From positions 64,001 to 128,000 of the forward strand of contig CAXXLZ010000003.1 of NCBI GenBank assembly GCA_963675595.2: a stretch of DNA of 64,000 nucleotides, read 5' to 3'. This DNA is from Thermodesulfobacteriota bacterium. Lineage in GTDB: Bacteria > Desulfobacterota > Desulfarculia > JACQYL01. A model generated the notes under the pieces. It searched no databases. It saw only the letters and a program-made list of their open reading frames with translations, and was not told where the DNA came from. Positions 13,380-36,394 of the stretch are shown here, in pieces (the stretch's first letter is position 1; each line of letters starts with the position of its first letter). Made by a program: the position numbers and the translations under genes.

Positions 13380-15422
13380 TCAACCCACGGCGCGTTGCTT
13401 GTTCTTCAGGTAGTCCACGATCACCATTTGCGCCAGGTCTTCGGATGCGGCGAACAATGCCTTTCCTTTGTTCTCTTTACCCAAAGCGGACACGAATTGT
13501 TGCATCCCTTCGTCTTCGGAGAGCATAAACGTGGTGATGCGAATTCCTTCTTTGGTGCAGCGAGCCGCTTCCTTCAAGGTCTCCGAGAGGATCATGGGGG
13601 TGGCTTCGGATTCCAGGAATACGGTGCCGTCCATCTCGCACGCCGTGGGCTCGGCGTCCGTGATCAGGAAGATTCGTTTTTCCAGATGCGGCTGTCGACT
13701 CAGTATCCGACGGCAAAGCCGCAATCCTTCCTGGAGGTTGGTGAAGTCGCTCAGGAAATCCGGTCCTCCCTCGCGTTCCTGGGTTCGCAGGGCTTCCATG
13801 GAGATCGTTTTGGGAAAAGGAAGCGGGTTGTAAGGCATGGTTCGGGCGGTGAGCAACTCTTCCGGTTTGAGGATGCGGGCCAGGGAGTAGAATCCCACAA
13901 TGTGGAGGCGATCGCCTCGGAACTTCCTTCGGAGGAGTTCCTGAAGGTTCATGGCCACATTTTTGGCTTGAGGCAGGCGCTCATCCATGGAGCTGCTCAA
14001 GTCGATCAGGAGCACGGAGGCGGTCAAAGAATCGTATTCCGGTTCATAAACGCGGAAATCTTCCGTGCCGATCCTTACGGATCGACCCTTTCCATTTTTC
14101 CGACCGAGGGCGGACAGAATGGTGGCGGATGGGTCGAGATTCCAGGGATCGCCGTATGCATACTTTTTCGAGCTTCCGGAAAGGCTGTGCAGGGCGCGTG
14201 ACCTGTGCCGTGTTTTTTGCATCCCTCGGGGCAGGTTCATGCCGCATATCAGGTCCAGGAAACTCAACTCCCGAATTCTCCGTACGGCCTTGCCCGTGAG
14301 ATTCATGCGCTCCTGCTCGACCTGCAGGTAGCCCGCCTGAACCAGTACGTCCACGAGCCGCTGAAGGTTGTCCAGAGAAGCTTCGGCCAGTTCTCCCAGC
14401 AGCTCGCCCACCAAGTCTCGATTGACCTGATCGAGATCACCCAGGATATGGGCGCGTGTAAGGGAGTCTTCGAGCATCTCCAGTTTCCTCAATTTGAGCG
14501 CAACCTGAAAAGCGGCGTCAAGGGTGAGCGGTTGAGAGCCCGTGAATTCATAGGCTTTTACATGGGTCAAAGGGCTGATCCGGTCGAATCTCTCGAAGAG
14601 GCGTCGGAGGGATTGTCGGAGGGCTTCCGAGGATTCCGGGGGCTCCACCGATTCCAACGCCAGCCGTACTTGGAAGGGGAGGCTCGCCATGAGCGTCTTC
14701 ACTGCGGCCCGCTCCATTTGAACCGTATGGACGAAGGGGATGACCCCTTTGTCTATGGCAAGAACGCCCGGGAACTCGGCCAGGAAGGCCAAGAGGGCTT
14801 CAGTGCGGGCGTCTCCCCGAAGGTCCAGAACCTCGGCGAAGGAGTCGAGCGCAGGTATCGGGACCGGATCATGGTCGATATTGCTCTCGTGGAGAAGGAA
14901 TCGGATGCCTGAAAGTTTGCGCCACACCTCCTTTCCCCAGCGGAGGAGCGCGGCGCGGGCCTCGTTGTCGTCGTCCACGGCGGCGATCCGTCGCAGCTCG
15001 GACCCCGGATCATCGGGAAACCCGCTGAGAATTCCGTTCTTCATGGGGGGCTTTGCGCCATCGCCGTGTTCTTGAGAACCGGAGGGATTGTCGCCGCCCG
15101 AGTCCGTTGTCGGCCCGGAACTCGGATTTTGCGATGCATAGAAGAGTTCAAATCGCCTGCGGACCTGGTCGAGTACCCTGTCTATGCGATATGTGGCCAG
15201 CAAACCCTCGCGGAACCGACGGACCTGCTCGAGCATGCGGGAGAGACCGTCCACCCGTTGCTCCTCGTCGAGAAAACCATCCCACTTGATCTTCTCGAAG
15301 GCGGTTTCCAGCTTGTAGTTCTCCGTCAGCTTCCGTGAGAGCGCTTTAAGCAGACTGTCCGTGTCCGGCCCTGCCTTGTTCTTCTTGCCGTCTTCTGCTC
15401 GAAAGTAACGATAAACGGGCAT
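13380..15422 (-). CDS. VWA (MIDAS) domain protein of the chelatase/MoxR-partner type (Rv0959-like)
   Basis: C-terminal VWA LLIDLSSSM, TNLQEGL, FLITDAEPTA; KYAYGDPWNLD linker. Start placed at ATG 15422 (MPVYRY). Confidence 0.85.
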   Translation of the reverse strand: MPVYRYFRAEDGKKNKAGPDTDSLLKALSRKLTENYKLETAFEKIKWDGFLDEEQRVDGLSRMLEQVRRFREGLLATYRIDRVLDQVRRRFELFYASQNPSSGPTTDSGGDNPSGSQEHGDGAKPPMKNGILSGFPDDPGSELRRIAAVDDDNEARAALLRWGKEVWRKLSGIRFLLHESNIDHDPVPIPALDSFAEVLDLRGDARTEALLAFLAEFPGVLAIDKGVIPFVHTVQMERAAVKTLMASLPFQVRLALESVEPPESSEALRQSLRRLFERFDRISPLTHVKAYEFTGSQPLTLDAAFQVALKLRKLEMLEDSLTRAHILGDLDQVNRDLVGELLGELAEASLDNLQRLVDVLVQAGYLQVEQERMNLTGKAVRRIRELSFLDLICGMNLPRGMQKTRHRSRALHSLSGSSKKYAYGDPWNLDPSATILSALGRKNGKGRSVRIGTEDFRVYEPEYDSLTASVLLIDLSSSMDERLPQAKNVAMNLQELLRRKFRGDRLHIVGFYSLARILKPEELLTARTMPYNPLPFPKTISMEALRTQEREGGPDFLSDFTNLQEGLRLCRRILSRQPHLEKRIFLITDAEPTACEMDGTVFLESEATPMILSETLKEAARCTKEGIRITTFMLSEDEGMQQFVSALGKENKGKALFAASEDLAQMVIVDYLKNKQRAVG

Positions 15423-15520
15423 GGTTTCGTACTCTGATTGGTCAATGTTGAGGGTGATTTTTCCCGGTGACCGAACACCGCCGGAGGGGCTTTTACCCGA
15501 TTCTCCGGCGTGGCACAGGG

Positions 15521-15868
15521 TCAAGGCACGGAAACCGTGATGGAGGCTACGGCGACCATCACGTGATCTCTGGTTCCGTTTCTTCTCAGGCTGCCCTCTT
15601 CCAGAAGGCCCCCCTGGACAACCTGAATCTCCTTTGAACCGAACGGGATGGTTTTGAGCACCTCTTCCTGATTCACCTCTTCCGGAAGCGGGATCCCGAT
15701 CTTCACTTTCACTTTCATGTCGGCAATATCCTGAAGAAGGCCGCATTCGAAAAGACCCAGCATGGAACAGCGCTGAATCGCGTCCTTCACGGCGCGAATC
15801 GCGCATCTTGTAGCTTCCGGTTTGTGCAGGTCGGTGCCCATGCCCAATTCGATCAGGTAATTACGCAT
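15521..15868 (-). CDS. Lin0512 family protein
   Basis: YLIELGMGTDLH...TRCAIRAVKDAI...IPFG...GGL pattern, 115 aa. Confidence 0.85.
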   Translation of the reverse strand: MRNYLIELGMGTDLHKPEATRCAIRAVKDAIQRCSMLGLFECGLLQDIADMKVKVKIGIPLPEEVNQEEVLKTIPFGSKEIQVVQGGLLEEGSLRRNGTRDHVMVAVASITVSVP

Positions 15869-15910
15869 CGAAAATCTCCTTTGGAGGCGTTACATGAGTC
15901 TTGAGGTTCG

Positions 15911-15942
15911 GAGGCAAGGCGGGCCTGCGCGCCTCGCCTCCC
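15911..15942. terminator. GC-rich hairpin downstream of the hydrolase
   Basis: GGAGGCAAGGCG...CGCCTCGCCTCC stem; no clear U-tract. Confidence 0.4.
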
Positions 15943-15956
15943 GTTGATGATCAGGA

Positions 15957-16856
15957 CTATAGGTGTTTCAGGAACCAGTCTCGTTGGGCCGGGCTCGAAA
16001 TCTCAAAGGCGCGCCCGACGTAGGCTTCGAAATGGCCCCCGGGAAGCAGGAGAATCTTTTTGGGTTCGAGTGCCTGTTCGAACGCCTCGCAGGTAATCTC
16101 CGCGGGGACGAGCGTGTCGCCCAAAGCCACCACCAGCATGAAAGGCGTGGGACAGATGTTTCGAATGTACCAGCCGGGTTCGTATTCCGCAAAGAGCTCC
16201 ACGGACTGCAGAGTGATCGAGTTGCGCCAGGAGGGCGCGAGAGTCTTGCAGGTTTCCAGAAAGAACTGCCTGGAATCGTCCGTGGGCAAGGCACAGGGGT
16301 CCCCCGGCTGTTCTCCGACCACGGGAATCATGGCCGGAGGATTTCCCGCGTATCGGGAGGCTCGATCCGCATCGAAGCCTGCTCGAACTGCGGGAAACAA
16401 ATCGGAGCGAATCAGTCTTTTGGCGTTCCTGAGTCCGCTGACCAAAGGCACCTGGGAAACCACGCACTTAACCCGCCGGTCGATGGCTCCGACCACGATC
16501 ACGTGGCCGCCGCTGTAACTGGAACCCCAAATGCCGATTCGATTTTCGTCGACTTCGTCCATGGAGGATGCAAAGGTAATCGCATCTCTGTAGTCGGAAA
16601 TCTGCTTCCATGGATCGATGTGACCTCTGGGCTCACCGTCGCTTTCTCCGAGATTCCGGTTGTCATAAACCAGTGCGTTCAGGCCCGCCTTGGCAAATAC
16701 CTCCGCAAACTTGTCCAGATACATTTCTTTAGTGGCGGAGAATCCGTGGGCCATGACAACGGTCGGTGCCGCGCCCGTCGCTCCTTCGCCTGGATAAAAC
16801 CAACCCCTTAACGTCACGCCGTCCTCGGTTTTAAAGTTGATGTCCCTTCGCATCAT
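15957..16856 (-). CDS. Alpha/beta hydrolase (esterase/thioesterase-like)
   Basis: VVMAHGF, YDNRNLGESDG, nucleophile elbow WGSSYSGG, D-TLVP, GGHF. Confidence 0.9.
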   Translation of the reverse strand: MMRRDINFKTEDGVTLRGWFYPGEGATGAAPTVVMAHGFSATKEMYLDKFAEVFAKAGLNALVYDNRNLGESDGEPRGHIDPWKQISDYRDAITFASSMDEVDENRIGIWGSSYSGGHVIVVGAIDRRVKCVVSQVPLVSGLRNAKRLIRSDLFPAVRAGFDADRASRYAGNPPAMIPVVGEQPGDPCALPTDDSRQFFLETCKTLAPSWRNSITLQSVELFAEYEPGWYIRNICPTPFMLVVALGDTLVPAEITCEAFEQALEPKKILLLPGGHFEAYVGRAFEISSPAQRDWFLKHL

Positions 16857-17109: not shown

Positions 17110-18318
17110 CTACGCGATCACGTCTTCTTCCGCCAAAGAGTTCAGCTCGACGTCGGACATTCCCAGAACGAGCCGGAGGATTTCCGCGGTACTTTCACCC
17201 AGGAGAGGAGAACATGCGACCGGAGGAGCCGCGTTGTCCACTCGGATGGGAGAGCCCAAAACGGTCAGGCGTCCCCAGTCCGGATGGTCGATTTCCTGGA
17301 GAAATCCTCCGGCGCGTACGTGTTCGTTTCGAGCGATTTCCGTCGAATCCAAAACGGCTCCGCAGGGGATATTCTCAGCCGCGAGGGTTTCCATAACCTC
17401 GAACTTGTCCCGGGCGGCGACCCAGGCTCCGATCTTGCGGTCGATTTCCTCGCGGTGGTCAATGCGTTCTTCAATGGAAGGGATTTTTCGGCCCTCGTCG
17501 TTGGAGTCGGCTTCGATGATTTCCATCAATCTGCTGAAGGCGTGGTTGGAAATGGCGCAGATGGCGACATAGCCGTTTCGAGCTTGGTACAAATCCCAGG
17601 GAGTGACGTCCCGGAGTTGGTTACCCAGGCGCGGAGCCGGGCTCCCGTAGGCAATATGGGTTCCCAACAGAGATCGTCCCAGGTTGATGGCGGCTTCTTG
17701 AAGGGTGACCTCTACTTTTCCTCCTCGACCCGTGCAGGTGCGCCGATAGAGGGCCGCCGCTATGCCCAGTGCCAGGTAAGCGCCGCCGGAGGCATCCGCT
17801 ACGGTAGCCCCACAGCGGAGAGGCAACCCGCCTTCTTCTCCCGTAAGGCTCATGATGCCTCCCATGGCCTGGGCGGTCATGTCCAGGGACGGAAAGTGCG
17901 CATACGGACCTGTGGTCCCGTATCCGCTGACGGAGGCCAAGATCAATTTCGGGTACTTCTCCAAGAGAGACGGATCGTCCAGGGACAATTGCGAGCGCCT
18001 CCGGGAACCCACATTCTCGACCAGCACATCCGTTTGATCCAGCAAACGATGAAAGACCGCCCGGCCTCGCTCGCCGTCCAGATCGAGAGCCACGCTCTTC
18101 TTGTTCAAGTTCATCAAAACGAAATAGAGATCTTCCTTATTGCCCTTGTTGTGGAAGAGTCGCCGTCTCGCTCCGCCGTGCTTGGGACTCTCCACTTTGA
18201 TCACCTCCGCTCCGAGCAAAGCCAGAAGCAGGGTGCAGGTGGGTCCCGCCTCATACTGCGATAGGTCGAGAATGCGAACTCCCGAGAGGAGACTCTGTTG
18301 GGGAATGGTTTGGGACAA
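17110..18318 (-). CDS. Family III CoA transferase (CaiB/BaiF; formyl-CoA transferase-like)
   Basis: DLSQYEAGPTCT..LGAEVIKVE, LYFVLMNLNKKS, SVSGYGTTGPY, catalytic Asp in GATVADASGG, PLLGEST. Confidence 0.9.
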   Translation of the reverse strand: MSQTIPQQSLLSGVRILDLSQYEAGPTCTLLLALLGAEVIKVESPKHGGARRRLFHNKGNKEDLYFVLMNLNKKSVALDLDGERGRAVFHRLLDQTDVLVENVGSRRRSQLSLDDPSLLEKYPKLILASVSGYGTTGPYAHFPSLDMTAQAMGGIMSLTGEEGGLPLRCGATVADASGGAYLALGIAAALYRRTCTGRGGKVEVTLQEAAINLGRSLLGTHIAYGSPAPRLGNQLRDVTPWDLYQARNGYVAICAISNHAFSRLMEIIEADSNDEGRKIPSIEERIDHREEIDRKIGAWVAARDKFEVMETLAAENIPCGAVLDSTEIARNEHVRAGGFLQEIDHPDWGRLTVLGSPIRVDNAAPPVACSPLLGESTAEILRLVLGMSDVELNSLAEEDVIA

Positions 18319-18346
18319 GAGCCGCTCCTTTCAAGGGACGAGCATA

Positions 18347-19195
18347 TCACGTCATCACGAGGCCGCCTGAGACACTGATGGTCTGCCCGGTGATGTAAGC
18401 CCCCAAGTCGGAGGCCAGGTAGGCGATCATAAGGGCCAGTTCTTCGGGCTCGCTGTAACGACGCAACGGAACCAATTTCAGAGTCTTATCGAGCTTGGTG
18501 ATGGCGTCCTTGCTGGAGCTTTTTAGGTCATCGATTTCCTGGACTCCGATGGAAACACAATTGCAGGTGATTTTGTATCGAGCCAATTCTTGGGCCAAGG
18601 AACGGGTGAACGAACTCACCGCGGCTTTGAGCGCTCCATACAGGGACATTCTGGGAACCCCGATCCGAGCGGTGTCGGATACCATGTGGATGATCCGACC
18701 GAATTCTCGTTCCTTCATGAAAGGAATCACCGACTGGGACCAGATCAACACGCTTTCGAGTACGTTTCGGTATTGAGCCTCCCATTCGGAACGTTCTTGC
18801 TCTTCGAAGGGCTTGAGATGATACATGAATTCGAGCAAGCCAAGGTCCGTGGCCAGGGCGTCGATTCGGCCCTCCCGTTCCATGACCCCCTGAAGAAAAT
18901 TCCGTATGGACGTGGCGTCCGAGTAATCTAGTACTTGCGTGTGGAGCCGGGGACCGAATAGTTCCTCACATTCCCTCGAGACGATATCGATCACCTTGGG
19001 GTTGGTATCCACTGCATAAACCACGGCCTCCTCGGCCATCAATATCTGGCAAAGCTCACTGGGGATGCATTTGCCGGACTTGTGGGATACAACCACCACC
19101 ACTCGGTCTTTGAGACCGTTGTTTCTCAGCGTCAGGAATTGTTCCTCGGCCTGTCGTCTGCTTTGCGGGGTGTCCAGGTTGCAACGAGATGTCAT
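18347..19195 (-). CDS. Short-chain dehydrogenase/reductase with atypical cofactor motif
   Basis: GRIIHMVSD, YGALK (YxxxK), RSLAQELA, YITGQTISVSGG. The N-terminal TGxxxGIG is replaced by SHKSGKCI. Confidence 0.85.
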   Translation of the reverse strand: MTSRCNLDTPQSRRQAEEQFLTLRNNGLKDRVVVVVSHKSGKCIPSELCQILMAEEAVVYAVDTNPKVIDIVSRECEELFGPRLHTQVLDYSDATSIRNFLQGVMEREGRIDALATDLGLLEFMYHLKPFEEQERSEWEAQYRNVLESVLIWSQSVIPFMKEREFGRIIHMVSDTARIGVPRMSLYGALKAAVSSFTRSLAQELARYKITCNCVSIGVQEIDDLKSSSKDAITKLDKTLKLVPLRRYSEPEELALMIAYLASDLGAYITGQTISVSGGLVMT

Positions 19196-19415: not shown

Positions 19416-19431
19416 AGCAACATCCATGCCA
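19416..19431 (-). promoter_or_regulatory. sigma54 promoter of the leftward operon
   Basis: Minus strand reads TGGCAT-GGATG-TTGCT, a near-consensus -24/-12 element. Confidence 0.8.
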
Positions 19432-19513
19432 CCTGCCGGTAGGATGTGACGCGTCTCGTCCTATAGTAACCGGGTCCCGTTTCTTTCGTTGGAGTTCGGC
19501 TATTCCTTGAAAC

Positions 19514-19529: not shown

Positions 19530-19618
19530 CTACCATTCCGACAGGTTTCCTATGAGCCGAGAATGTGGCAAGGGTGATTCAGGCAGGTCCGCTTAGACGG
19601 GGCGCGAGGAGAGAGGAC

Positions 19619-21886
19619 ATGTATATCATCGATTTTAATCCCTTCCAGTATGAGGGGCTGTCTCAGACGGACGAGGGCGACGCCCCCGTTTCGGACGGAT
19701 TCGCGTTTCCCTACGGGCGATCGAACGGCGCGAGAAAAGCCTCGGATCCTGTGGAAACCATGAACAATGAGCTTCTTTCCGAGCTTGTAGAGAGAACGAA
19801 ACTCATTGCCAGCCTGAACAATATCAGTCCCCTTCCGTTGGAAGGAATGACGCTGGACAAGGTGCTCAGCACCATTTTGAACAATATGCTTCACTGTTTC
19901 GGCTACTACCGGGGCATCGTTTATCTTTGGGACAAGAAGAAGGAAAACCTCGCATGCCATGCCACAGCGGGCATGAGCCCGGACAGCGAACGTATTGTAC
20001 GTTCGAGGCCTCTAAGCGCCCGCAGACATGACTGCATTGAAATTCGCGCCGCCCGGACCTCCACGTATACGTTCACAGAGGACCCGACCAACGGCACGGA
20101 ACTGACCGACGTGGACCGAAAGATTTCGGAGCAGCACGGCGGCCGGGGCTCGGTCCTTTACGTTCCCTTGCGCTCCAAAGGCGAAACGTTCGGTATCATG
20201 GGCGTCGAACGGTTTCCGACGCCGAACAGGGAGTGCCCCGAACAGTTCCAGATTACGGAAAAAGATATCAAGTCCCTGATGCTGTTCACCAACCATGCCA
20301 GCATAGCTATCGAGAATGCCAGGCTTCACGAACAGAACCAAAGGAAGATCGACTACTTGTACAAATTGCAGTCGGTGTATCAAGAACTGAACACTCTTAT
20401 GGACCTCCGGCGACTCACTGAACGGGTTCTGGAGGGGGGACTGTGCATCAGCGGTGCTGAAACAGGGATTTTTTGGGACGTGCATGAAGACGGGTGTGAA
20501 GTGCTGGTGGATGCGGCTTGTGGCTACCCGCAATGGGTGAGGAGAGGCATGGGCGTCTCCTGCAAGAATGATGATTTTCAGTACATAATCCGGCAGAAGG
20601 AAGCCGTGGCCTTTCGGCAACCCGCCCCGTTCCTCAGAGAAATTCCGTGCCTTCGGCCCGGCGCAACCTCGATCCTGTTGCCCATCGAGTTCGATGACAG
20701 GGTTGCGGCCATTCTGCAGTTGGACCTTCCGGACGGTAGCGGGATGGACGACACCGCTACGGAGGTCTTGAAGATCTACTCTTCTCAGGCCGGTAAGCTC
20801 CTCGAAAACGTGAAGCTATACAATCAGTTGCTTGTGGAGAAACGTTTTACGGACAACGTCAGGAACAGTCTGGGGATTGGGCTTCTTATCACGGACAAAT
20901 ATGGTAATATTCGCTCTATTAATCCAAAAACACGCGATGTTTTTAATATTAACGGGGCTGATCTCGTCAGAAAGAATATGGTTTCCGTATTCAAGGGAAA
21001 ACGACGTTTCGTATCCGACATCGTCCAAGACGTCATGTCCACTAAAACGGACATGGAGCGAGAGGTGGTCTACGAGACCGGTGTGGGAACCCTGATCCTG
21101 AAACTTTCCGCGTTTGTCGTGCACGATGAAGCGCGAAGTTTGGTCGGTGTGACGACTTTTATCCAGGATATTACCGAAAAGAAGAAACTGGCGGATTCGC
21201 TGAACCGGATGGAGAAGATGGCCGCCATGGGAACGATGGCCGCGGGGGTGGCTCATGAACTCAGGAATCCTCTCAGCGGTATTTATGCGGCGGTGCAGAC
21301 GCTTTCGAAGGAACTGATACTGACCGACGATCAACGTGAAGAAATCAACGACGTCCTGTCCGAAGTGGACCGGATGGAGATACTGATTCGCGAAATACTC
21401 CAAATATCAAGACCGGTTAACCTGAGGATATCACGAACGGATATCAACGGCCTGCTGCGTAGTTCAATCGTGGGGCTCCGAGAGAGCTTCCAGGAGAAGA
21501 AGATCAAAGTGGTGGAGCATCTGGATCCCCTCTTGCCTTTGGTCCAAGCCGACGGCGATTTGTTGAGGCACGTCTTCCAGAATCTCCTTCTGAACGCGGT
21601 CGACGCCGATCCGGAAGAAGGCGTGGTCGAAGTCGATACGCGATGTGTTTCTTCCTATATTCATACCGGAGAGAGACTCGTGGAAATCCAGATCTCGGAT
21701 AACGGTTCCGGCGTGGCTGAGGAAAACCTCTCAAAGATCTTCGATCCGTTCTTTACCACGAAAAATCACGGCACCGGCCTGGGATTGACCATATGTCAAA
21801 AGATCATCCAGGAACACGATGGTGAGATCTATGTGACACAACTCCCGGGACAGGGCAGCAGTTTTACGGTACGTCTGAAATTATGA
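19619..21886 (+). CDS. Cytoplasmic GAF-GAF-PAS sensor histidine kinase (NtrB type)
   Basis: GAF ends (IAIENARLHE; LENVKLY), PAS ending QDITEKK, H-box VAHELRNPL, N-box NLLLNA, DNGSG, PFFTTK, GTGLGL. No TM segment seen. Confidence 0.92.
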   Translation: MYIIDFNPFQYEGLSQTDEGDAPVSDGFAFPYGRSNGARKASDPVETMNNELLSELVERTKLIASLNNISPLPLEGMTLDKVLSTILNNMLHCFGYYRGIVYLWDKKKENLACHATAGMSPDSERIVRSRPLSARRHDCIEIRAARTSTYTFTEDPTNGTELTDVDRKISEQHGGRGSVLYVPLRSKGETFGIMGVERFPTPNRECPEQFQITEKDIKSLMLFTNHASIAIENARLHEQNQRKIDYLYKLQSVYQELNTLMDLRRLTERVLEGGLCISGAETGIFWDVHEDGCEVLVDAACGYPQWVRRGMGVSCKNDDFQYIIRQKEAVAFRQPAPFLREIPCLRPGATSILLPIEFDDRVAAILQLDLPDGSGMDDTATEVLKIYSSQAGKLLENVKLYNQLLVEKRFTDNVRNSLGIGLLITDKYGNIRSINPKTRDVFNINGADLVRKNMVSVFKGKRRFVSDIVQDVMSTKTDMEREVVYETGVGTLILKLSAFVVHDEARSLVGVTTFIQDITEKKKLADSLNRMEKMAAMGTMAAGVAHELRNPLSGIYAAVQTLSKELILTDDQREEINDVLSEVDRMEILIREILQISRPVNLRISRTDINGLLRSSIVGLRESFQEKKIKVVEHLDPLLPLVQADGDLLRHVFQNLLLNAVDADPEEGVVEVDTRCVSSYIHTGERLVEIQISDNGSGVAEENLSKIFDPFFTTKNHGTGLGLTICQKIIQEHDGEIYVTQLPGQGSSFTVRLKL

Positions 21887-23247
21887 GATTACTGATCGTC
21901 GACGATGAAAAGCTGATTCGCAACTCCCTGAAACGGCACTTTCAGAGTGAGGGTTATCAGGTTTTCCTCGCGGAAAACGCACAAAGAGCCCTTGCCTCCT
22001 ACCGGGAATACAGTCCCGAGATGGTGCTTCTGGACATACGTCTTCCCGATGGAAACGGACTCGATGTTCTTCGACAGATTCGGGATATCAACCCTGAAGC
22101 GGCCGTGATTCTCATTACTGCCTATGGTGGTATCAAGTCGGCCGTGGAAGCCATCAAGGAAGGGGCTCAGGACTACATTACCAAACCTTTCGACGTTGAA
22201 GAGCTTTCGTTTACCGTCCGAAAAAGCAGTGAACTTCTCCGCTTGAGAGAAGAGCTGAAGGTCATCAAGGAGAGTAGGGCGGAAAAATACGCTTTCGGGA
22301 AGATCGTTGCGCGATGCGCCAATATGCAGAAAGTTTTCGGGGAAGCTCGGAAAGTGGCCATGACGGACAACGCCACCGTTATTGTGCGGGGAGAGAGCGG
22401 CACGGGCAAAGAGTTGCTTACAAGGGCCATTCATTACAACAGCCCTCGAAAAGACCTGCCTTTCGTTGTGGTCAACTGTGCTTCCCTGCCTGAAAACCTG
22501 CTCGAGAGCGAACTCTTCGGCTATGAGAAAGGAGCCTTCACCGGAGCGGTCAAACGAAAGATCGGACTTCTCGAGACGGCGGACAAGGGCACCATATTTC
22601 TGGATGAGATCGGAGACATCAGTCCGAGCACGCAGGTTAAGCTGCTCAGGTTCCTTCAGGAACAGGAATTTCACCGTCTCGGAGGTCTTCGTGCGGAAAA
22701 GGTCAACGTTCGTGTGGTGGCGGCGACCAATCGGAATTTAGAAAGTGATATCGAAAAGGGATTTTTTCGGGAGGACCTTTACTATCGATTGCACGTCTTT
22801 CCTATTTTTATTCCGCCTCTCCGTGAACGCAGAGAGGATATCCCTCTGCTCGCCAAGCATTTTCTCGGCAACTTCAATCGAGAATTCGGCAAAGCGGTGG
22901 TGGGGTTCGCCTCCGAGGCCATGGCGGCGCTCGAGAGTTACCAATGGAAGGGAAATGTTCGAGAACTGAAGAACGTGATTGAGCGATCCGTGATATTGGC
23001 CGAGGGTCGCTGGATTCTCGCTTCTCTCCTTCCCACTGAGGTGCGGGGCAACACTTCGCCGGTGGCGGAGCCGGACTTCCTGTCCGGCCCGGTTTCGGAA
23101 GGGACGATACTGCCTCTGGAGGAGCTGGAACTCCGCTATGTGAAAAAGGTGCTTGAATTCACGGGTGGAAATAAGAGCCAAGCCTGCAATTATTTGGGGA
23201 TCACCCGGAAACGCCTCCGACGAAAATTGGCTAAGGAGGGCCTGTAA
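21883..23247 (+). CDS. sigma54-dependent response regulator (NtrC/AtoC family)
   Basis: REC domain (VDDE, LDIRLPD), GESGTGKE, GAFTGA, LDEIGD, FREDLYYRL, C-terminal Fis-type HTH. Confidence 0.95.
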   Translation: MRLLIVDDEKLIRNSLKRHFQSEGYQVFLAENAQRALASYREYSPEMVLLDIRLPDGNGLDVLRQIRDINPEAAVILITAYGGIKSAVEAIKEGAQDYITKPFDVEELSFTVRKSSELLRLREELKVIKESRAEKYAFGKIVARCANMQKVFGEARKVAMTDNATVIVRGESGTGKELLTRAIHYNSPRKDLPFVVVNCASLPENLLESELFGYEKGAFTGAVKRKIGLLETADKGTIFLDEIGDISPSTQVKLLRFLQEQEFHRLGGLRAEKVNVRVVAATNRNLESDIEKGFFREDLYYRLHVFPIFIPPLRERREDIPLLAKHFLGNFNREFGKAVVGFASEAMAALESYQWKGNVRELKNVIERSVILAEGRWILASLLPTEVRGNTSPVAEPDFLSGPVSEGTILPLEELELRYVKKVLEFTGGNKSQACNYLGITRKRLRRKLAKEGL

Positions 23248-23486: not shown

Positions 23487-23502
23487 TGGTACGGTTCTTG
23501 TT
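23487..23502 (+). promoter_or_regulatory. Probable sigma54 promoter of the rightward operon
   Basis: TGGTAC-GGTTC-TTGTT, preceded by an AT-rich IHF-like tract (AAAAATCAATAGGTTA). Confidence 0.6.
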
Positions 23503-26988: not shown

Positions 26989-27789
26989 ATGTTCTACGCG
27001 GGCGTTGATGTCGGGTCTCGCACGGCCAAGGCGATCATTCTGCATGACGGCCGGCAAATGGGTTCTCACTTGATTTCCACTGGGGCGGACAGCGCGGAGA
27101 CCTCCAAGACCGTCCTCGAAGGGGCACTGCGCGATGCCGGGCTGGAAATGGGACTGCTGAAGGGCATCGTCACCACCGGGTACGGCCGCTACATCGCGCC
27201 TTTCCCCCATGAGAGCATCACGGAAATCGCCTGCCACACCAGAGGGGTGCATCAGGTATTCCCTTCCGCCCGAACGATTTTGGATATGGGTGGGCAGGAC
27301 TGCAAGGCAATTCGGTTGAACGAGTCGGGGGATCATATCAATTTTGTGATGAACGACAAATGTGCCGCGGGAACAGGCAGGTTTCTTGAAGTCCTGGCGC
27401 GAAGTCTGGATGTGCGTCTGGAGGAAATGACGACCCTCGCCTTGGGAGCGGATAACCCCATTCGCATCAGCTCGGTCTGCGCGGTGTTTGCCAAGGAGGA
27501 AGCGCTCTCCCATCGGCGAAGAGGAGTTCCTCTCAATGCGATCCTTGCCGGAGTCCTGGATTCCGTCGCCGAACGCGTGTTCAAACTGATCAACGTCGTT
27601 GGGCTGGAGGAGGATTTTGTGATTACCGGAGGAATCGCCTTGAATGCCGGAGTGGTCCGGCGAATTGAGCAACGAGCCAAGATGCGGGCGCTCATTCCTC
27701 CGGAACCCCAATTGACCGGCGCCATGGGGGCGGCTTGGCTGGCGAAGCATTTGGACGAATCGAAACTAGGAAAGGGTGGGTATGCCTGA
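26989..27789 (+). CDS. ASKHA ATP-dependent activase subunit (BcrA/BzdQ/HgdC-like)
   Basis: GVDVGSRTAK, TTGYGR, TEIACH, DMGGQDCK, MNDKCAAGTGRFLE, CAVFAK, TGGIA. Confidence 0.9.
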   Translation: MFYAGVDVGSRTAKAIILHDGRQMGSHLISTGADSAETSKTVLEGALRDAGLEMGLLKGIVTTGYGRYIAPFPHESITEIACHTRGVHQVFPSARTILDMGGQDCKAIRLNESGDHINFVMNDKCAAGTGRFLEVLARSLDVRLEEMTTLALGADNPIRISSVCAVFAKEEALSHRRRGVPLNAILAGVLDSVAERVFKLINVVGLEEDFVITGGIALNAGVVRRIEQRAKMRALIPPEPQLTGAMGAAWLAKHLDESKLGKGGYA

Positions 27790-28564
27790 TTTTGTTACAT
27801 GGGAAATGGAGAATGCCGTAGCTCAAGTAGTGCTGAACAGTCCTCCCGCCAACGCCATGAGTGCCGGGCTTCTGCAGGAGCTCGACGGCGTCGTAAAGGA
27901 GTTGAAGACCGACTCCCGGGTGCGGGCGGTGGTTTTCAGGAGCGCCGTTCCGAAAATCTTCATGGCCGGCGCGGACTTGAAAGCCTTGACGGATATGGAT
28001 GGAACACGCTTCCGTGAGTATATCCGCTATGCCCAGGAAGTGTTCAGCGGGATCGAAAGACTGGGTATGCCGACCATCGGGGTGCTGAGCGGGCATGCCT
28101 TGGGCGGAGGGTGTGAATTTTCCCTCTGCTTCGATTTCCGTTTCATGGCGGAGGAGAAGGCGAGAATCGGCCTTCCCGAAGTCACGTTGGGGCTTATTCC
28201 GGGGGCGGGGGGCACTCAGCGTCTTCCTCGCCTCATCGGCCTGGCCAAGGCAAGGGAGTTTCTGATCCGGGGAAATGCCGTCGATGGAGCCGAAGCGCTG
28301 TCCATCGGCTTGGTGGATCGTGTTTTTCCCGCAAGCAGTCTTCTGGACGAGGCCCTGCAGTTCGCCCAAGCCATGGCCGTGGGAGCGACCAAGGCCATGG
28401 CGGAAATCAAACGTTGTCTGGCGGTTCCGACCGAAGAAGCCCTGTGGACCGGGCTGAACCAGGAACTTGACGGCATCGTACGCTTGTTCACTGAAACCGA
28501 GGACACAAAGGAAGGGATTCGGGCGTTCAACGAGAAACGTTCACCGGTGTTTCACGGGAAATAG
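27782..28564 (+). CDS. Enoyl-CoA hydratase (crotonase family)
   Basis: FMAGADL, GHALGGGCE, GLPEVTLGLIPGAGGTQRL with both catalytic Glu; F.EKR.P.F.G tail. Confidence 0.92.
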   Translation: MPDFVTWEMENAVAQVVLNSPPANAMSAGLLQELDGVVKELKTDSRVRAVVFRSAVPKIFMAGADLKALTDMDGTRFREYIRYAQEVFSGIERLGMPTIGVLSGHALGGGCEFSLCFDFRFMAEEKARIGLPEVTLGLIPGAGGTQRLPRLIGLAKAREFLIRGNAVDGAEALSIGLVDRVFPASSLLDEALQFAQAMAVGATKAMAEIKRCLAVPTEEALWTGLNQELDGIVRLFTETEDTKEGIRAFNEKRSPVFHGK

Positions 28565-28581: not shown

Positions 28582-29346
28582 ATGGAAATTCGGAATGCTG
28601 TAGCTTTGGTGACCGGGGGAGCATCCGGTCTTGGAGAGAGATGTGCTCGCGATCTCGTTGCTGAAGGAGCTCGTGTGGCGATTCTGGATGTGGGCGAAAG
28701 AGGGGCCGAGGTTGCCGCCGAGCTGGGTGATGCCTGCATTTTCTGCAAGACCGACGTGACGAGCGCCGATTCCGTTAAAGCCGCGGTAGACGAGGCCGTT
28801 GCGAAATTCGGTGCGATTAACATCGCCGTGAACTGCGCCGGCGTGGCCACTGCGGCCAAAGTGATCGGCAAAACGGGTCCCATTGATCTGGCGGGATTCG
28901 AAAAGGTGATCAGCATCAACCTGACGGGAACCTTGAACGTTCTGCGTCTGGCCGTGGAACAGATGCTGAAGAACGCCCCCAACGAGGAAGGGGAGCAGGG
29001 TGTGGTGATCAATACGTCTTCTTGTGCGGCTTTTGAAGGTCAGATCGGCCAAGCGGCCTACAGCGCATCCAAGGCCGGCGTGGCCGGTATGACGTTGCCC
29101 ATTGCTCGGGAACTAGCTCGTTACGGAATCCGTAATGTGACCATCGCCCCCGGCCTGTTTGAAACCCCCATGCTCGCGGGGATGCCGGATAAGGTTCGCC
29201 AGTCCCTCATCGCCACGTGCCTTTTTCCAAAGAGACTTGGAAAACCCAGTGAATTCTCCCTGCTGGTGAAGCAGATCATTCAGAATCCAATGTTGAACGG
29301 CGCCACCATCCGATTGGACGGTGCGCTGCGTATGGCTCCCCAGTGA
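28582..29346 (+). CDS. 3-hydroxyacyl-CoA dehydrogenase type 2 (HSD17B10-like SDR)
   Basis: VTGGASGLG, NCAG, AAFEGQIGQAAYSASK, TLPIARELA, IRLDGALRM. Confidence 0.93.
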   Translation: MEIRNAVALVTGGASGLGERCARDLVAEGARVAILDVGERGAEVAAELGDACIFCKTDVTSADSVKAAVDEAVAKFGAINIAVNCAGVATAAKVIGKTGPIDLAGFEKVISINLTGTLNVLRLAVEQMLKNAPNEEGEQGVVINTSSCAAFEGQIGQAAYSASKAGVAGMTLPIARELARYGIRNVTIAPGLFETPMLAGMPDKVRQSLIATCLFPKRLGKPSEFSLLVKQIIQNPMLNGATIRLDGALRMAPQ

Positions 29347-31424: not shown

Positions 31425-31446
31425 AGTAGATAAGAGCCAAACTCCG

Positions 31447-31470
31447 GGGACCCACAGCTTGTGGGTCCCT
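31447..31470 (+). terminator. Hairpin after the ThDP enzyme gene
   Basis: GGGACCCAC-loop-GTGGGTCCC followed by a short TT. Confidence 0.5.
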
Positions 31471-31901
31471 TCCAGACTGCAGACTCCGAGATTCCGGAGA
31501 CGTTCCTCCGGTTCCGGAAACTCTCGGACGCTGAAGGAGGTAGAGCCGAATTCCTTGATATGTCGTTTTCAGGGCAGCGGAATGAACCTTGAGCCGGCTG
31601 TTGAAAAACGCGTTTCGTCCTCCGGGGGGCTTGCTCCTTCATAGCGATGTATGGAATGTACGTCTTCTTGGTTGGAGTTTACGGGCGCTGCAAGTCATCG
31701 TTTTTCATCCAGCTGAACCAGCGGGACTGTTTCAACGGATTCCCGGGGAGCTTAGGAACTGAGAGCACGGCCTCAGCCGCGCATAAGCCGGACCGAAGTC
31801 CGGATCGGTGAGGAATTGGGGGCCGATTTCCGAGAACATCCTTTTTCAAAGTCGCGTGGACTCGACATAGGAACGGCGGATTCCGTGACCGGTTCAAAGA
31901 T

Positions 31902-34900: not shown

Positions 34901-35000
34901 CGGCGTCCCCGTCAGGTTGGACCTGAACCAACGCTTGTTGATCGTGGACTACGACCGGGTGTCGCCTAATTCCATGAATGAAACGAGGAGTGATCCATGA
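31902..35000 (+). CDS. Large radical SAM protein with a B12-binding-like domain and TPR-like termini
   Basis: TSRGCPYDCRFC (CxxxCxxC); upstream PDVFAVS...IIIGG...DVMIRGDAD cobalamin-binding-like Rossmann segment; EDDDF; TPR-like LARLGRYDEA and LQLGRYSEA. Confidence 0.82.
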   Translation: MHSNALQEAIGYSIEGPLHKAVDLLRTLLDSGNSAAGPYLADVLARLGRYDEALGVLDGMRGEHSWDSRYQEQWERTHRALNDLEFVERSRYCRAGFLEKAVVPDGRGSYLVDTLGFPGTWLFSSKAGKYISPPACLRLLKSVAWISEETRAGRVTPRAMSEGLIECKGSVSIVPSSDLSSLKVAFEKQSDGSLHWFFEADPKVLNWEREQQRAALREALEKEEIAVLKAPVRAEETEGTSSRELPRVMLISPGLASDYAVAVLRDRLISEGFRADAAYIRSMKLLDRYLEWFASPSDSGDKPPDVFAVSVLDAEIESVCYMIANLRRAFPDSRIIIGGASSQTPEQLASVVPDFDVMIRGDADEALARVAAILGCTPRRNGVSQAQLDEIKALPGGIVLQIGSHRLVHGLDYMNVPAEYHLPVPRVRKHIYYWQTSRGCPYDCRFCNKWTGRRYHTVVPWDDHGAPNSPLGRSAYAMIEFLLGRLAMEMPSGITQEEIKRRLEDGVRDGNIQGLPELPEKIFIVIEDDDFLIQRDRVIEFCRQVEELGLQQFFVFSAITSIRTVFRGGDQPDIALLHALHKAGFQSLDVGSDGLSQSTIEENQKGYSLDRHVIPLNRLAKGLGFFCFNNTIISTPYTTLPQLIESLIFYVVCPYPINTAIEIGIMGHIGNKYTNEDFVNQQYDWTDEPGKDFGHYRLIDNYRVPKDFPEYALNGSLIIGYADPKVRDLVLEFPKQRTEDFIQEKLSPEDVRSVLESWINLPDSRSETKALGLTISLLTQGLPWSKFGATLSRIKDEMSALNISSFVDYYDALSQGAVENDSFYMKTREAMGEALESKEKGDWGRAEEAFRNLTERVPWYFRPHRERMICLLQLGRYSEAVEHFAKYQLIDPNLHFYHSYFGQVLKSLGLDDAVRTQRAMFHIPRYFTISPIFYYLALIMEVAGGDEVRGFAFPPVHPERIERMYDLFDYLTIDLIRGWVEPRRESLRKDLLEGREVLICGVPVRLDLNQRLLIVDYDRVSPNSMNETRSDP

Positions 35001-36394
35001 ACCGACCCGGAACGCTTGCGGAACTGCGCGAGGCGGGTGTGACCACCAGATCGATTCGAACCGAACTGCGCTCCAACCTCATCGATCGTATCCGTTCGGG
35101 GGAAGGCATCTTTCCGGGCATTATCGGGTTCGACCAGTCCGTGCTGCCGCAGATCGAGAACGCCGTTCTTTCCGGCCAGGACATGGTGTTGCTTGGGGAA
35201 AGAGGACAGGCAAAGACCCGGCTCATGAGGTCCTTGACCCGGCTTCTCGACGACGAAATTCCCGCCGTGGCCGGCTGTGAACTGCGTGACGATCCGTTCG
35301 ATCCCATTTGTGAACACTGTAAACGAACCATCGAAAAGATGGGGCCTGATACGCCCATCCAATGGGTGAGCCGCGACCTCCGATACACCGAAAAACTGGC
35401 CACGCCCGATGTGACCGTGGCGGACCTCATCGGTGAAGTGGACCCCATCAAGGTGGCCGAGGGACGATACTTGTCCGACGTTTCGACCATACACTATGGT
35501 TTGGTGCCGCGTTCCAACCGGGGTATTTTCGCTTTTAACGAGCTCCCCGATTTGGCGGAGAAGATCCAAGTCGGGCTCTTCAACGTCCTGGAAGAACGCG
35601 ACGTGCAGATCAGAGGGTTCACGGTCCGACTTCCTTTGGACATCTTTTTCGTGGCCAGCGCCAATCCCGAAGACTACACGAATCGCGGGCGGATCATCAC
35701 CCCGCTCAAGGATCGCTTCGGTTCCTGCATTCGTACGCACTATCCGGAATCGAGGGAAGAGGAAATCATCATCATCGATCAAGAGAGGCGGCCGTTTCCC
35801 GAAGAAGACGAGGTTCATGTCCCGAGCTACATGAAGGAAATCATCGCGGAAATATCGAGAAAGGCCAGAAATCATCCCGAGATCGACCAGCGATCTGGTG
35901 TGAGCGTACGAGCATCCATCCACAACATGGAAAATCTGCTTTCCAACGCATTCAGGCGCAGCCTGAAATTCAGCTCGGAGCGTGCCGTTCCACGCATCAG
36001 CGACCTAGCCTACCTCAAGGCATCCTTGTTGGGCAAGATCGAATTCGAAGGTTTTGGAGAACAGCCGGAAGACAAGGTGATTTCGGAAGTGCTCGACCAG
36101 GCGGTGAGGGAAGTGTTCGAGTCATATCGGCGCAATGAGGACTTCAAAACCTTCCTGGCCAATTTCGAGGACTCACGAGAGGTACTGGTGTCGGCGGATT
36201 GGTCGGGCTCACAATATGAGAAGCAAGCGGGATCTCTGGAAGGCGCCGAGGAGGTCTTTGCCCTCGCGGAGGGGAGCGGGCCCGAGGAAAGGGCTTCCGC
36301 TTTGGAGTTCGTACTCGAGGGCCTTCGGCTCAGAGGACAACTGGGCAAAGACGAAATCGCAGGGACGGTCCACTATCATCGCAGCCGGGATTGA
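34997..36394 (+). CDS. Chelatase/MoxR-like AAA+ ATPase (Rv0958-like)
   Basis: Walker A GERGQAKT, EKLATPD, DPIKVAEGR, NELPDL, ASANPEDYTNRGRIITPLKDRFG, SGVSVR. ATGA overlap with the radical SAM gene. Confidence 0.9.
   Translation: MNRPGTLAELREAGVTTRSIRTELRSNLIDRIRSGEGIFPGIIGFDQSVLPQIENAVLSGQDMVLLGERGQAKTRLMRSLTRLLDDEIPAVAGCELRDDPFDPICEHCKRTIEKMGPDTPIQWVSRDLRYTEKLATPDVTVADLIGEVDPIKVAEGRYLSDVSTIHYGLVPRSNRGIFAFNELPDLAEKIQVGLFNVLEERDVQIRGFTVRLPLDIFFVASANPEDYTNRGRIITPLKDRFGSCIRTHYPESREEEIIIIDQERRPFPEEDEVHVPSYMKEIIAEISRKARNHPEIDQRSGVSVRASIHNMENLLSNAFRRSLKFSSERAVPRISDLAYLKASLLGKIEFEGFGEQPEDKVISEVLDQAVREVFESYRRNEDFKTFLANFEDSREVLVSADWSGSQYEKQAGSLEGAEEVFALAEGSGPEERASALEFVLEGLRLRGQLGKDEIAGTVHYHRSRD

Follow-up and report, generated by a model that had tools for sequence, protein, structure and literature searches.

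A divergent, sigma54-associated gene island of a Thermodesulfobacteriota bacterium joining a long 2-hydroxyacyl-CoA lyase-like enzyme with a benzoyl-CoA reductase/2-hydroxyacyl-CoA dehydratase-family quartet

Gene content and conservation of the island

The subject of this analysis is a gene island at positions 13380-36394 of a 64,000-nt stretch of DNA (hereafter the window) from a Thermodesulfobacteriota bacterium (assembly GCA_963675595.2; contig CAXXLZ010000003.1, 64,001-128,000 of the forward strand); all coordinates are those of the window, counted from position 1 upward, unless a locus is named. The island consists of two divergent gene runs flanking a two-component pair and encodes, among other proteins, a long thiamine diphosphate (ThDP) enzyme of 660 residues (ThDP660), a four-subunit enzyme of the benzoyl-CoA reductase (BCR)/2-hydroxyacyl-CoA dehydratase (HAD) family (the quartet), a family III CoA-transferase, a crotonase as well as a 3-hydroxyacyl-CoA dehydrogenase (Table 1). 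The island proteins were assigned to families by Pfam, NCBIfam, comparison with solved structures (PDB) and Atlas clusters. An earlier note on this DNA had read the gene set as a formyl-CoA elongation or cleavage pathway built on a radical dehydratase.

The most solid result is that the ThDP gene is linked to the HGD-D pair, i.e., the genes for the alpha and beta subunits of the quartet. Neighbourhoods were compared in the 12 best loci related to the ThDP gene (L001-L012), in the window's own genome (G000) and in other genomes of the same family (G401 and G402), using a distance criterion of 10 kb for the HGD-D pair. In five of the 12 loci (L001, L003, L009, L010 and L012) the pair is found inside this distance from the ThDP gene, two ATPase genes stand at the edge of locus L002, and three of the five ThDP matches in the own genome are clustered with HGD-D genes. 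An orthologue of ThDP660 with 86% identity was found in both other genomes of the same family; none was found in 38 further relatives, nor any match above 35% identity in 400 genomes sampled across the phylum. The order of the whole island, minus the crotonase gene, is kept in G402, and in G401 the genes for the kinase, regulator, crotonase, 3-hydroxyacyl-CoA dehydrogenase, ThDP enzyme, radical S-adenosylmethionine (SAM) protein, AAA+ ATPase and VWA protein stay together, with the quartet orthologue elsewhere. The locus tags of the ThDP and HGD-D genes are also five genes apart on one contig of a Zixibacteria-labelled assembly. The HGD-D pair has the ThDP gene, and not the transferase gene, as its most constant neighbour, and the co-conservation that the earlier note had suggested checking was borne out by this linkage and by the gene order of G402.

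Other neighbours of the ThDP660 family also recur. In Chloroflexota, a gene for aldehyde:ferredoxin oxidoreductase (AOR) lies directly upstream of a ThDP660-family gene in L005 and L006 and downstream of one in L007, and a family III CoA-transferase gene lies directly upstream of one in L004. Neighbours of these two kinds are in keeping with an enzyme by which an aldehyde and formyl-CoA are formed or consumed, and the AOR genes provide a context for the aldehyde chemistry proposed earlier.

Several side observations concern these loci. L005:209-4135 and L006:7843-11977, both from one Chloroflexota metagenome-assembled genome (MAG), hold paralogous pairs of AOR and ThDP660-family genes (AORs 76%, ThDP enzymes 75% identical), which suggests duplication of the pair and its retention as a unit. 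The L010 cluster contains a second ThDP enzyme of 561 aa, three family III CoA-transferases, a Zn-dependent alcohol dehydrogenase and an AOR fragment. In the Zixibacteria-labelled assembly (P0004, P0126), the ThDP enzyme is 84% and the beta subunit 68% identical to those of the window, for which gene transfer or a binning or labelling problem is possible.

Table 1. Genes and candidate promoter elements of the island
Feature	Position	Strand	Basis or remark
VWA protein, intact MIDAS	13380..15422	-	PF13519 VWA_2; open reading frame (ORF) extends to 15806 (808 aa), probable start M129
Lin0512-family small protein, 115 aa	15521..15868	-	PF09585, 107.8 bits
alpha/beta-hydrolase, esterase/lactonase-like	15957..16856	-	Pfam Peptidase_S15, AXE1, Abhydrolase
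Family III CoA-transferase, Frc-like	17110..18318	-	PF02515, 340.6 bits
Short-chain dehydrogenase/reductase (SDR) oxidoreductase, first gene of minus run	18347..19195	-	adh_short, adh_short_C2
sigma54-type -24/-12 element TGGCATGGATGTTGCT	19416..19431	-	1 mismatch to TGGCACN5TTGCW
Sensor histidine kinase	19565..21886	+	GAF, PAS, HisKA, HATPase_c
sigma54-dependent response regulator	21883..23247	+	REC, AAA+ sigma54 interaction domain, HTH_8
Candidate -24/-12 element TGGTACGGTTCTTGTT	23487..23502	+	2 mismatches; GT replaces GC at -12
Catalytic alpha subunit (BzdO/HadB-like, HGD-D), 487 aa	23543..25006	+	PF06050
Beta subunit (BzdN-like, HGD-D), six-cysteine pattern, 388 aa	25030..26196	+	Nearest solved relative BzdN
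ATPase subunit 1, 253 aa	26202..26963	+	BcrAD_BadFG
ATPase subunit 2, 266 aa (ATPase266)	26989..27789	+	BcrAD_BadFG
Crotonase (short-chain enoyl-CoA hydratase)	27776..28564	+	ECH_1, 191.5 bits; solved relatives are crotonases
Type II (SDR) 3-hydroxyacyl-CoA dehydrogenase	28582..29346	+	4o5o, E 8e-83; HSD17B10-type entries
ThDP660, long ThDP enzyme like 2-hydroxyacyl-CoA lyase (HACL) and oxalyl-CoA decarboxylase (OXC), 660 aa	29442..31424	+	PF02776, PF00205, PF02775
TPR and B12-binding radical SAM protein, 1032 aa	31902..35000	+	CPYDCRFC motif
ChlI/BchI-like AAA+ ATPase, 465 aa	34997..36394	+	Follows the radical SAM gene also in L001, L002, G401 and G402

The genes on either side of the island (spermidine synthase, rpe, alkaline phosphatase, YibE/F, a phosphoesterase, a methyltransferase and a metallo-beta-lactamase (MBL)-fold protein) are unrelated to it, so the borders drawn in the earlier note fit. 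Its gene inventory agreed with the gene calls and families, with four genes left undiscussed, i.e., those for the B12-binding radical SAM/TPR protein, the ChlI-like AAA+ ATPase, the MIDAS-containing VWA protein and the Lin0512 protein. Further downstream, at 44000-62000, the G+C content drops from about 0.57 to 0.40-0.48 in several 2-kb blocks, which may be foreign DNA.

The kinase and sigma54 activator that had been placed between the divergent runs were recovered there by their Pfam domains; of the GAF-GAF-PAS architecture attributed to the kinase, one GAF and one PAS domain were found, and the second GAF domain was not detected by Pfam. Each run had also been credited with a -24/-12 promoter. 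The minus-run element (TGGCATGGATGTTGCT, ~220 nt upstream of the SDR start) looks good, and G402 has GGGCACATGTTTTGCA ~200 nt upstream of its orthologous SDR gene, a placement like that in the window. The plus-run element is uncertain, and the look-alikes ahead of the plus runs of G402 and G401 have GG-N8-CTTG and lack the -12 GC (GA instead). Since the motif is not enriched across the window (22 matches at ≤2 mismatches vs. 25.0 expected), it is the position of a match that counts.

Among the remaining enzymes, the CoA-transferase has the formyl-CoA transferase models NF003809 and TIGR03253 as its best NCBIfam matches, and its nearest solved relatives are Frc (best), YfdW and SUGCT, with YfdE also near; the description as an Frc-like family III enzyme thus stood. 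The crotonase, judged by its solved relatives, is of the ordinary short-chain type, and the plus-run SDR is identified as a type II 3-hydroxyacyl-CoA dehydrogenase by a match that is strong and covers the full length, both as had been proposed. The minus-run SDR reaches the cut-off of no NCBIfam model and has orthologues with 70-71% identity in G401 and G402. The hydrolase matches the NCBIfam model lactonase_UilS with its N-terminal part only, far below the cut-off, and has an orthologue with 86% identity in G401. The Lin0512 gene adjoins the CoA-transferase gene in G402 (65% identity) and the SDR gene in L002 (57% identity).

The long ThDP enzyme, its clade and the adjoining trio

ThDP660 exceeds the cut-offs of all three ThDP-enzyme domains. 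Its nearest solved relatives by sequence are HACL, 2-hydroxyacyl-CoA synthase (HACS) and OXC (E 1.9e-41), with catabolic acetolactate synthase (ALS) at 9e-24. For a tree, the E. coli proteins Oxc, IlvI and Gcl, with PoxB as outgroup, were taken out of the annotated K-12 entry; in it, the Oxc-containing group falls on the side of ThDP660 and IlvI and Gcl fall apart, with Shimodaira-Hasegawa-like approximate likelihood ratio test (SH-aLRT) values of 99% and 97%. An AlphaFold2 model of ThDP660 (pLDDT 77.2, pTM 0.80) was compared by Foldseek, and among the matches listed (ranks 1-50) 28 of 31 were HACL/HACS/OXC, two were HKA synthase and one was a reconstructed ALS. Sequence, tree and fold therefore all group ThDP660 with the 2-hydroxyacyl-CoA lyases and the oxalyl-CoA decarboxylases, and not with acetolactate synthase, glyoxylate carboligase or pyruvate oxidase, in agreement with the earlier note. 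Enzymes of this type are marked by a ThDP/Mg-binding GDG...NN motif and a cofactor-activating glutamate; the corresponding residues G492-D493-G494, N519-N520 and E84 are invariant in all 16 aligned family members. A glycyl-radical site in the C-terminal extension was also considered and dropped, as the family alignment has no invariant glycine there.

The ThDP660 family comprises ~88 clusters at ≥42% identity, all with metagenome or MAG labels (Deltaproteobacteria/Desulfobacterales, Zixibacteria and Chloroflexota). Together with ThDP683, ThDP651 and ThDP650, it forms a clade of long (650-685 aa) ThDP enzymes with an SH-aLRT of 100%. The own genome encodes three further long ThDP paralogues, which are mutually 27-38% identical and to which ThDP660 is 27-30% identical. 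One of them, ThDP683, belongs to an acetone-type cluster outside the window (G000:C1:918001-938000, L088), which comprises an SDR, MeaB, a B12-binding small subunit, an MM_CoA_mutase large subunit, a 400-aa radical SAM protein with Fer2_4 and radical SAM domains, a 126-aa ORF and ThDP683; an MBL-fold protein, an enoyl-CoA hydratase and an alpha/beta hydrolase are encoded close by. The acetone-inducible clusters of Desulfococcus biacutus and Desulfosarcina cetonica, as described in the available extracts of the reports (PMC7888143, PMC4103992, PMC7176365), resemble this run, and the length of the D. biacutus ThDP enzyme is given there as 685 aa (PMC7176365). ThDP683 is thus presumed to be orthologous to the published D. 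biacutus enzyme on the basis of length, gene order and the spread of its relatives into Desulfotomaculum-type organisms. Since all of these enzymes fall into one 100% clade, ThDP660 is a distant paralogue, not an orthologue, of the presumed ketone-activating enzyme. The acetone system with a B12 mutase to which the earlier note had pointed accordingly has a counterpart in the own genome, built on the paralogue ThDP683.

The same extracts report that, in the proteomes of acetone-grown D. biacutus, D. cetonica, Desulfotomaculum arcticum and D. geothermicum, two BCR/HGD subunits are co-induced with the ThDP enzyme, and that in D. arcticum a radical SAM gene of the pyruvate formate-lyase (PFL)-activase type lies beside the ThDP gene. 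In the passages at hand, the co-induced BCR-like proteins are mentioned without an assigned role, and the ThDP step is called experimentally inaccessible.

Some further features of the long ThDP genes in the own genome may be recorded here. The locus G000:C1:1552001-1572000 (L087) holds, in order, genes for TetR, a ThDP enzyme of 650 aa, a thiolase, HGD-D alpha, HGD-D beta, DUF362 and a thiolase, and ThDP, HGD-D, ATPase and AOR-like genes crowd the region of contig C1 at ~1.55-1.64 Mb. Fusions of DUF362 to long-ThDP-clade relatives also occur, in proteins of ~1090 aa (P0091, P0093 and P0097). Long ThDP genes repeatedly have a gene for an MBL-fold (Lactamase_B) protein in their vicinity, i.e., at 38305-39453 (+) in the window, 2 kb past the island, at L122:8502-9494 in the C132 run of G401, and at L088:3286-4320; these proteins share only 25-27% identity.

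The ThDP gene of the island is followed by the genes for the radical SAM protein and the AAA+ ATPase, an order also found in L001, L002, G401 and G402, and in L002, G401 and G402 the VWA gene directly follows the AAA+ gene. Among the loci compared, this trio occurs only in those of the Desulfobacterales type (L001, L002, G401 and G402) and not in the Chloroflexota loci L003-L012. The 1032-aa protein carries its CX3CX2C motif (CPYDCRFC) after a B12-binding-like stretch and TPR repeats, with weak B12-binding and BchE-like matches, and its nearest Atlas clusters are B12-binding radical SAM and TPR proteins. The MIDAS residues of the VWA protein (D602, S604, S606, T689 and D717) are invariant in all five aligned sequences; its start is probably at 15422, since three full-length orthologues are 684-685 aa long and the surplus at the N-terminus is overlapped by the Lin0512 ORF. 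In the C132 run of G401, the gene after the ThDP paralogue encodes a VWA relative of 418 aa. From this arrangement, we infer that the trio might serve as accessory factors of the ThDP enzyme. A predicted complex of ThDP660 with the VWA domain (residues 545-808) scored 0.00, which gives no answer and counts neither way. No similarity was detected between the 1032-aa radical SAM protein and the 400-aa protein of L088 (no match at 1e-4), so the pairing of ThDP and radical SAM genes may be convergent or coincidental. The gap between the ThDP and radical SAM ORFs (31425-31901, 477 nt) contains no convincing small ORF and measures ~110 nt in L001 and ~330 nt in L002; because of these differing lengths, the radical SAM start, or the presence of an internal promoter, is uncertain.

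The four-subunit enzyme

The reference residues for the quartet were taken from the BzdNO structure paper, according to the available parts of which six cysteines of BzdN (Cys36, 73, 100, 263, 293 and 327) ligate an [8Fe-9S] double-cubane cluster proposed to store two electrons, and the active site of BzdO comprises three cysteines with Glu65, His131 and Trp46, Glu65 and His131 being the proposed proton/hydrogen donors (PMC11971306). In the alpha subunit of the window, Cys134, Cys170 and Cys431 align with BzdO Cys95, Cys128/129 and Cys380, and they are conserved in all 10 alpha subunits compared. Met102 and Arg173 occupy the positions of BzdO Glu65 and His131, in an N-terminal alignment to BzdO that is weak (27.4 bits, vs. 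64.0 bits for HadB). An arginine at the His131 position was found in seven of the 10 alpha subunits, including all six that are ThDP-linked and accompanied by a six-cysteine beta subunit (window, L087, L003, L009, L010 and L012).

The beta subunit is nearer to BzdN (6e-49, 170 bits) than to HadC (2e-33, 119 bits). Its Cys32, 70, 97 and 338 align exactly with BzdN ligands, and Cys301 aligns to Cys288, beside Cys293. The position of BzdN Cys263 is taken by Gly272, and Cys340 is present instead. Among 29 near relatives, 23 have G/S272 with C340, five have C272 without C340, and one has another combination. This anti-correlation makes the ligand look moved from 272 to 340, so the six-cysteine double-cubane set is probably retained. 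In L003, L009, L010 and L012, the beta subunit linked to a ThDP gene shows all six cysteines at their canonical positions. HadC lacks equivalents of BzdN Cys36 and Cys263 in the alignment; the beta subunit of the window keeps the Cys36 equivalent.

The two ATPases are 31% identical to each other, and both carry the cluster cysteines Cys125 and Cys164. The tandem pair was also found in L002, L009, L010, G402 and the C132 run of G401. The best solved relative of ATPase266 is HadI (1.6e-62), followed by MbdQ (5e-60). The own genome has a second full quartet (C1 1631519-1635793), whose immediate neighbour at 1628697-1630619 is an AOR-like gene.

In known 2-hydroxyacyl-CoA dehydratases, a single activator gene gives a homodimer, the catalytic subunit has a three-cysteine [4Fe-4S] site, and the beta subunit has a three-cysteine [4Fe-5S] site in place of a double cubane. 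The label of a HAD/BCR-family enzyme given to the quartet by the earlier note was right, but the 'radical dehydratase' proposed there is not a canonical 2-hydroxyacyl-CoA dehydratase, in view of two different ATPases, a BzdN-like six-cysteine beta subunit and the loss of BzdO Glu65/His131. The cysteine and active-site marks speak decisively neither for nor against a radical dehydratase, and the quartet appears to combine the electron module of a Bzd-type reductase with an active-site half unlike that of BCRs and not clearly like that of HADs.

Possible chemistry and comparison with known systems

The reading favoured here, held tentatively and a little short of likely, is that the island is a catabolic unit for a carbonyl compound under sigma54/two-component control, in which the ThDP lyase, the quartet, the crotonase and the dehydrogenase form a route that may run in either direction; it would be a paralogue-based version of the ThDP-dependent system by which sulfate reducers activate ketones. 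The carbonyl compound would be an aldehyde or ketone, perhaps derived from an alcohol, ester or lactone via the minus-run SDR and the hydrolase. The long ThDP enzyme would join it with formyl-CoA to a 2-hydroxyacyl-CoA, or split the latter, and the Frc-like transferase could exchange CoA between formate and an acid. The quartet would interconvert 2-hydroxyacyl-CoA and enoyl-CoA by means of an ATP-energised electron and ketyl radical chemistry, and the crotonase and the type II dehydrogenase would connect enoyl-CoA with 3-oxoacyl-CoA. In favour of this scheme, first drawn in the earlier note, are the operon order and the genes beside relatives (AOR, transferase), together with the absence of genes for acyl-CoA dehydrogenase or ferredoxin; the better match of the alpha subunit's N-terminal domain to HadB and its loss of BzdO Glu65 and His131 also count for it. 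In the plus run (quartet, crotonase, dehydrogenase, ThDP enzyme) no acyl-CoA dehydrogenase gene occurs, and no ferredoxin-like ORF was seen in the gaps. The pairing found in the island probably belongs to the ketone-activation system of sulfate reducers. The data show the protein families, the clade, the linkage of the genes and the cofactor-binding motifs; substrates, direction, dehydratase activity and any part played by the radical SAM/AAA+/VWA trio are inferred.

A number of observations weigh against this reading. No curated NCBIfam equivalog cut-off is reached by any of the island proteins tested, a set from which the kinase, the regulator and the Lin0512 ORF were left out. ThDP660 scores 154.7 vs. 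739.4 with the OXC model TIGR03254, 163.9 vs. 557 with NF006721 and 149.7 vs. 600 with the HACL model NF058623, and the CoA-transferase, which has the family III fold, falls short of the Frc cut-offs (290 vs. 442 with NF003809; 281.1 vs. 504.2 with TIGR03253). The quartet likewise stays below those of BzdN (174 vs. 453.8), BzdO (117.6 vs. 448.6), BzdQ (211.8 vs. 380.2) and HadB (146 vs. 750). ThDP660 shares only 27% identity with the acetone-type paralogue ThDP683. Extracts of acetone-grown D. cetonica and D. biacutus, in the experiments covered by the available text of the acetone papers, formed no product from acetone and formyl-CoA or other C1 donors. The two different BcrAD_BadFG genes in tandem are BCR-like, and HADs have lost the double cubane according to the accessible part of the BzdNO paper (PMC11971306), whereas the six-cysteine pattern is seen, with one ligand apparently moved, in the beta subunit of the window. 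The crotonase gene is absent from the G402 island, and in L010 an OYE/FadH-type flavoenzyme gene (Oxidored_FMN and Pyr_redox_2; L010:12064-14037, Dehalococcoidia MAG) lies between the long ThDP gene and the HGD-D pair.

Gene order in G401 is a further point of this kind. Its C132 run consists of TetR, the quartet (81, 73, 61 and 71% identity), an MBL-fold protein, a ThDP660-family gene with 49% identity, the 418-aa VWA relative, two MM_CoA_mutase genes, a B12-binding subunit and a thiolase. The quartet therefore does not simply replace the mutase, and it may have a role other than the conversion of the lyase product. No B12 mutase or MeaB is encoded among the island genes, but as a general property the 'mutase-free' route of the earlier note did not hold. 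Of the pathway proposed there, the families and the co-conservation stood; a dehydratase of the canonical kind and a general freedom from a mutase did not.

A more specific form of the favoured reading is possible but doubtful. It takes the island to be an oxygen-free C1 shuttle on formyl-CoA, composed of an HACL-like ThDP enzyme and a radical enzyme of BCR architecture with a double cubane, in which the ThDP enzyme would depend on an AAA+/VWA activase and a B12-binding radical SAM partner. In one direction this would amount to anaerobic alpha-oxidation, and in the other to carbonyl formylation feeding beta-oxidation. If true, it would explain why the activation of ketones by the ThDP enzyme of sulfate reducers has defied reconstitution, and what task falls to the BCR-like proteins induced alongside.

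The best-surviving rival, which we regard as unlikely though well worth weighing, holds that the quartet is an ATP-dependent two-electron reductase of the Bzd or double-cubane cluster protein (DCCP) type acting on an aryl-, dienoyl- or 2-hydroxyacyl-CoA, with the crotonase and the dehydrogenase serving a modified beta-oxidation and the ThDP lyase cutting a C-C bond elsewhere. Two distinct ATPases, each with both cluster cysteines, and a beta subunit closer in bit score to BzdN than to HadC are what such an enzyme would have, and the six-cysteine pattern would be kept through the ligand swap, the [8Fe-9S] cluster being a proposed two-electron store (PMC11971306, available parts). The flavoenzyme within the L010 cluster and the AOR-like gene adjoining the other quartet of the own genome (C1 1628697-1635793) also suit a reductase. 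However, the alpha subunit has Met/Arg in place of the proposed donors Glu65/His131, the island contains no ferredoxin or donor-regenerating gene, a single crotonase is present with no Oah-type ring hydrolase, and the BzdN and BzdO equivalog cut-offs are missed. A reductase would also leave the recurrent ThDP linkage and the AOR and CoA-transferase neighbours of ThDP relatives unexplained.

It is improbable, in our view, that the quartet acts upstream of the ThDP enzyme or in concert with it, using ATP-energised low-potential electrons to bring CO2 or CO to the formyl level on CoA or ThDP, so that free formyl-CoA would not be the substrate. Such a reductive formylation would accommodate the finding that, as far as the available texts go, a ThDP step with formyl-CoA, oxalyl-CoA, formate, CO or CO2 was not demonstrable in extracts of acetone degraders in which BCR-like subunits are co-induced. 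The quartet also lies beside B12 mutases in the C132 run of G401, where it would not be needed to process the 2-hydroxyacyl-CoA, and the double-cubane pattern is probably present. DUF362, to which Pfam assigns no function, occurs in some iron-sulfur proteins, and it is fused to long-ThDP-clade relatives (P0091, P0093 and P0097) or encoded next to one (L087). Nevertheless, direct evidence for this chemistry is lacking and the literature consulted, to the extent accessible, holds no precedent; the alpha subunit keeps the CoA-ester-type HGD-D fold with three cluster cysteines, and the Frc-like transferase suggests that free formyl-CoA is handled.

Little likelihood is likewise given to a Stickland-like route for 2-hydroxy acids, in which the family III CoA-transferase would activate the acid, the quartet would dehydrate it ahead of beta-oxidation, and the ThDP enzyme would carry out a side reaction (decarboxylation of a 2-oxo acid or of the oxalyl-CoA type). 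Known 2-hydroxyacyl-CoA dehydratase systems are made up of such parts (a transferase, an HGD-D pair and ATPases of the activator type); HadABC/HadI and FldABC/FldI each combine a CoA-transferase (HadA, FldA) with an HGD-D pair and an activator ATPase. The HadB-like N-terminal domain of the alpha subunit and the SDR that precedes the transferase agree with such a route, but the transferase is nearest to Frc, SUGCT and YfdE, the ThDP gene rather than the transferase gene is the most constant HGD-D neighbour, and the ThDP enzyme has its affinities with HACL and OXC, which act on CoA esters. A plain oxalate Frc/Oxc pair was rejected on equivalog scores and gene context, the missed OXC and Frc cut-offs making it unlikely.

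Under the favoured reading of a carbonyl-activating unit, the island bears on a still-open problem, i.e., how strict anaerobes activate ketones without carboxylation, and offers a compact gene set that includes candidate accessory factors. Literature searches found no paper joining 2-hydroxyacyl-CoA lyase, 2-hydroxyacyl-CoA dehydratase and formyl-CoA, and none joining 2-hydroxyacyl-CoA lyase, anaerobic and benzoyl-CoA reductase; for acetone, thiamine, radical SAM and sulfate together, none of the papers listed looked relevant from the listing. Engineered formyl-CoA elongation routes exist; if the reading is true, the island would be their equivalent in nature and might also represent an alpha-oxidation that needs no oxygen, and the quartet would then be the first enzyme of BCR architecture with a double-cubane signature to be linked to 2-hydroxyacyl-CoA chemistry. 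Assemblies carrying the linkage bear the labels Desulfobacterales, Zixibacteria and Chloroflexota/Dehalococcoidia, which points to a part in the carbon turnover of the subsurface.

Compared with known systems, ThDP660 shares with HACL/HACS and OXC the three-domain ThDP fold, the position of nearest solved relatives by sequence and fold, and the ThDP-binding residues. In contrast, it is ~100 residues longer, with N- and C-terminal extensions (residues 43-602 match 9-537 of the 550-aa HACS), shows 20-24% identity in structural alignments, stays far under the curated cut-offs and falls into a separate clade. Like the oxalate pair of E. coli (frc-oxc) and Oxalobacter formigenes, the island combines a family III CoA-transferase, nearest to Frc, with a ThDP enzyme grouping with Oxc, but both proteins score far below the equivalog cut-offs and their genes lie in divergent runs, not adjacent, amid radical-enzyme and beta-oxidation genes.

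The quartet resembles the Bzd-type class I benzoyl-CoA reductase (BzdNOPQ) in its four subunits, two different ATPases and probable six-cysteine double-cubane pattern, and differs from it in the Met/Arg substitution at Glu65/His131, the apparently moved sixth cysteine, the lack of a ferredoxin gene, and neighbours that encode a ThDP lyase and short-chain beta-oxidation. With the (R)-2-hydroxyisocaproyl-CoA dehydratase system (HadBC/HadI/HadA) it has in common the HGD-D alpha/beta pair, the three-cysteine catalytic site, an activator-type ATPase and a family III CoA-transferase nearby, whereas the window has two ATPase genes instead of one, a six-cysteine beta subunit with the BzdN Cys36 equivalent that HadC lacks, and a transferase of the Frc type.

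The acetone/ketone-inducible clusters of Desulfococcus biacutus, Desulfosarcina cetonica, Desulfotomaculum arcticum and D. geothermicum, as far as described in the available texts, share with the island a long ThDP enzyme of the same clade (placed through ThDP683), its co-occurrence with two BCR/HGD-type subunits, an SDR-type 3-hydroxyacyl-CoA dehydrogenase and an enoyl-CoA hydratase, and a radical SAM gene adjoining the ThDP gene (PFL-activase-like in D. arcticum; the 400-aa protein in L088). Unlike them, the island has no B12 mutase or MeaB, its quartet with two ATPases shares an operon with the ThDP gene, its accessory genes are those for the B12-binding radical SAM/TPR, ChlI-like AAA+ and VWA proteins, and its regulation would be of the sigma54 type. 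We would class the island as an undescribed variant among the ThDP-dependent systems with which anaerobes activate carbonyl compounds, and its quartet as a new subtype within the BCR/HAD family.

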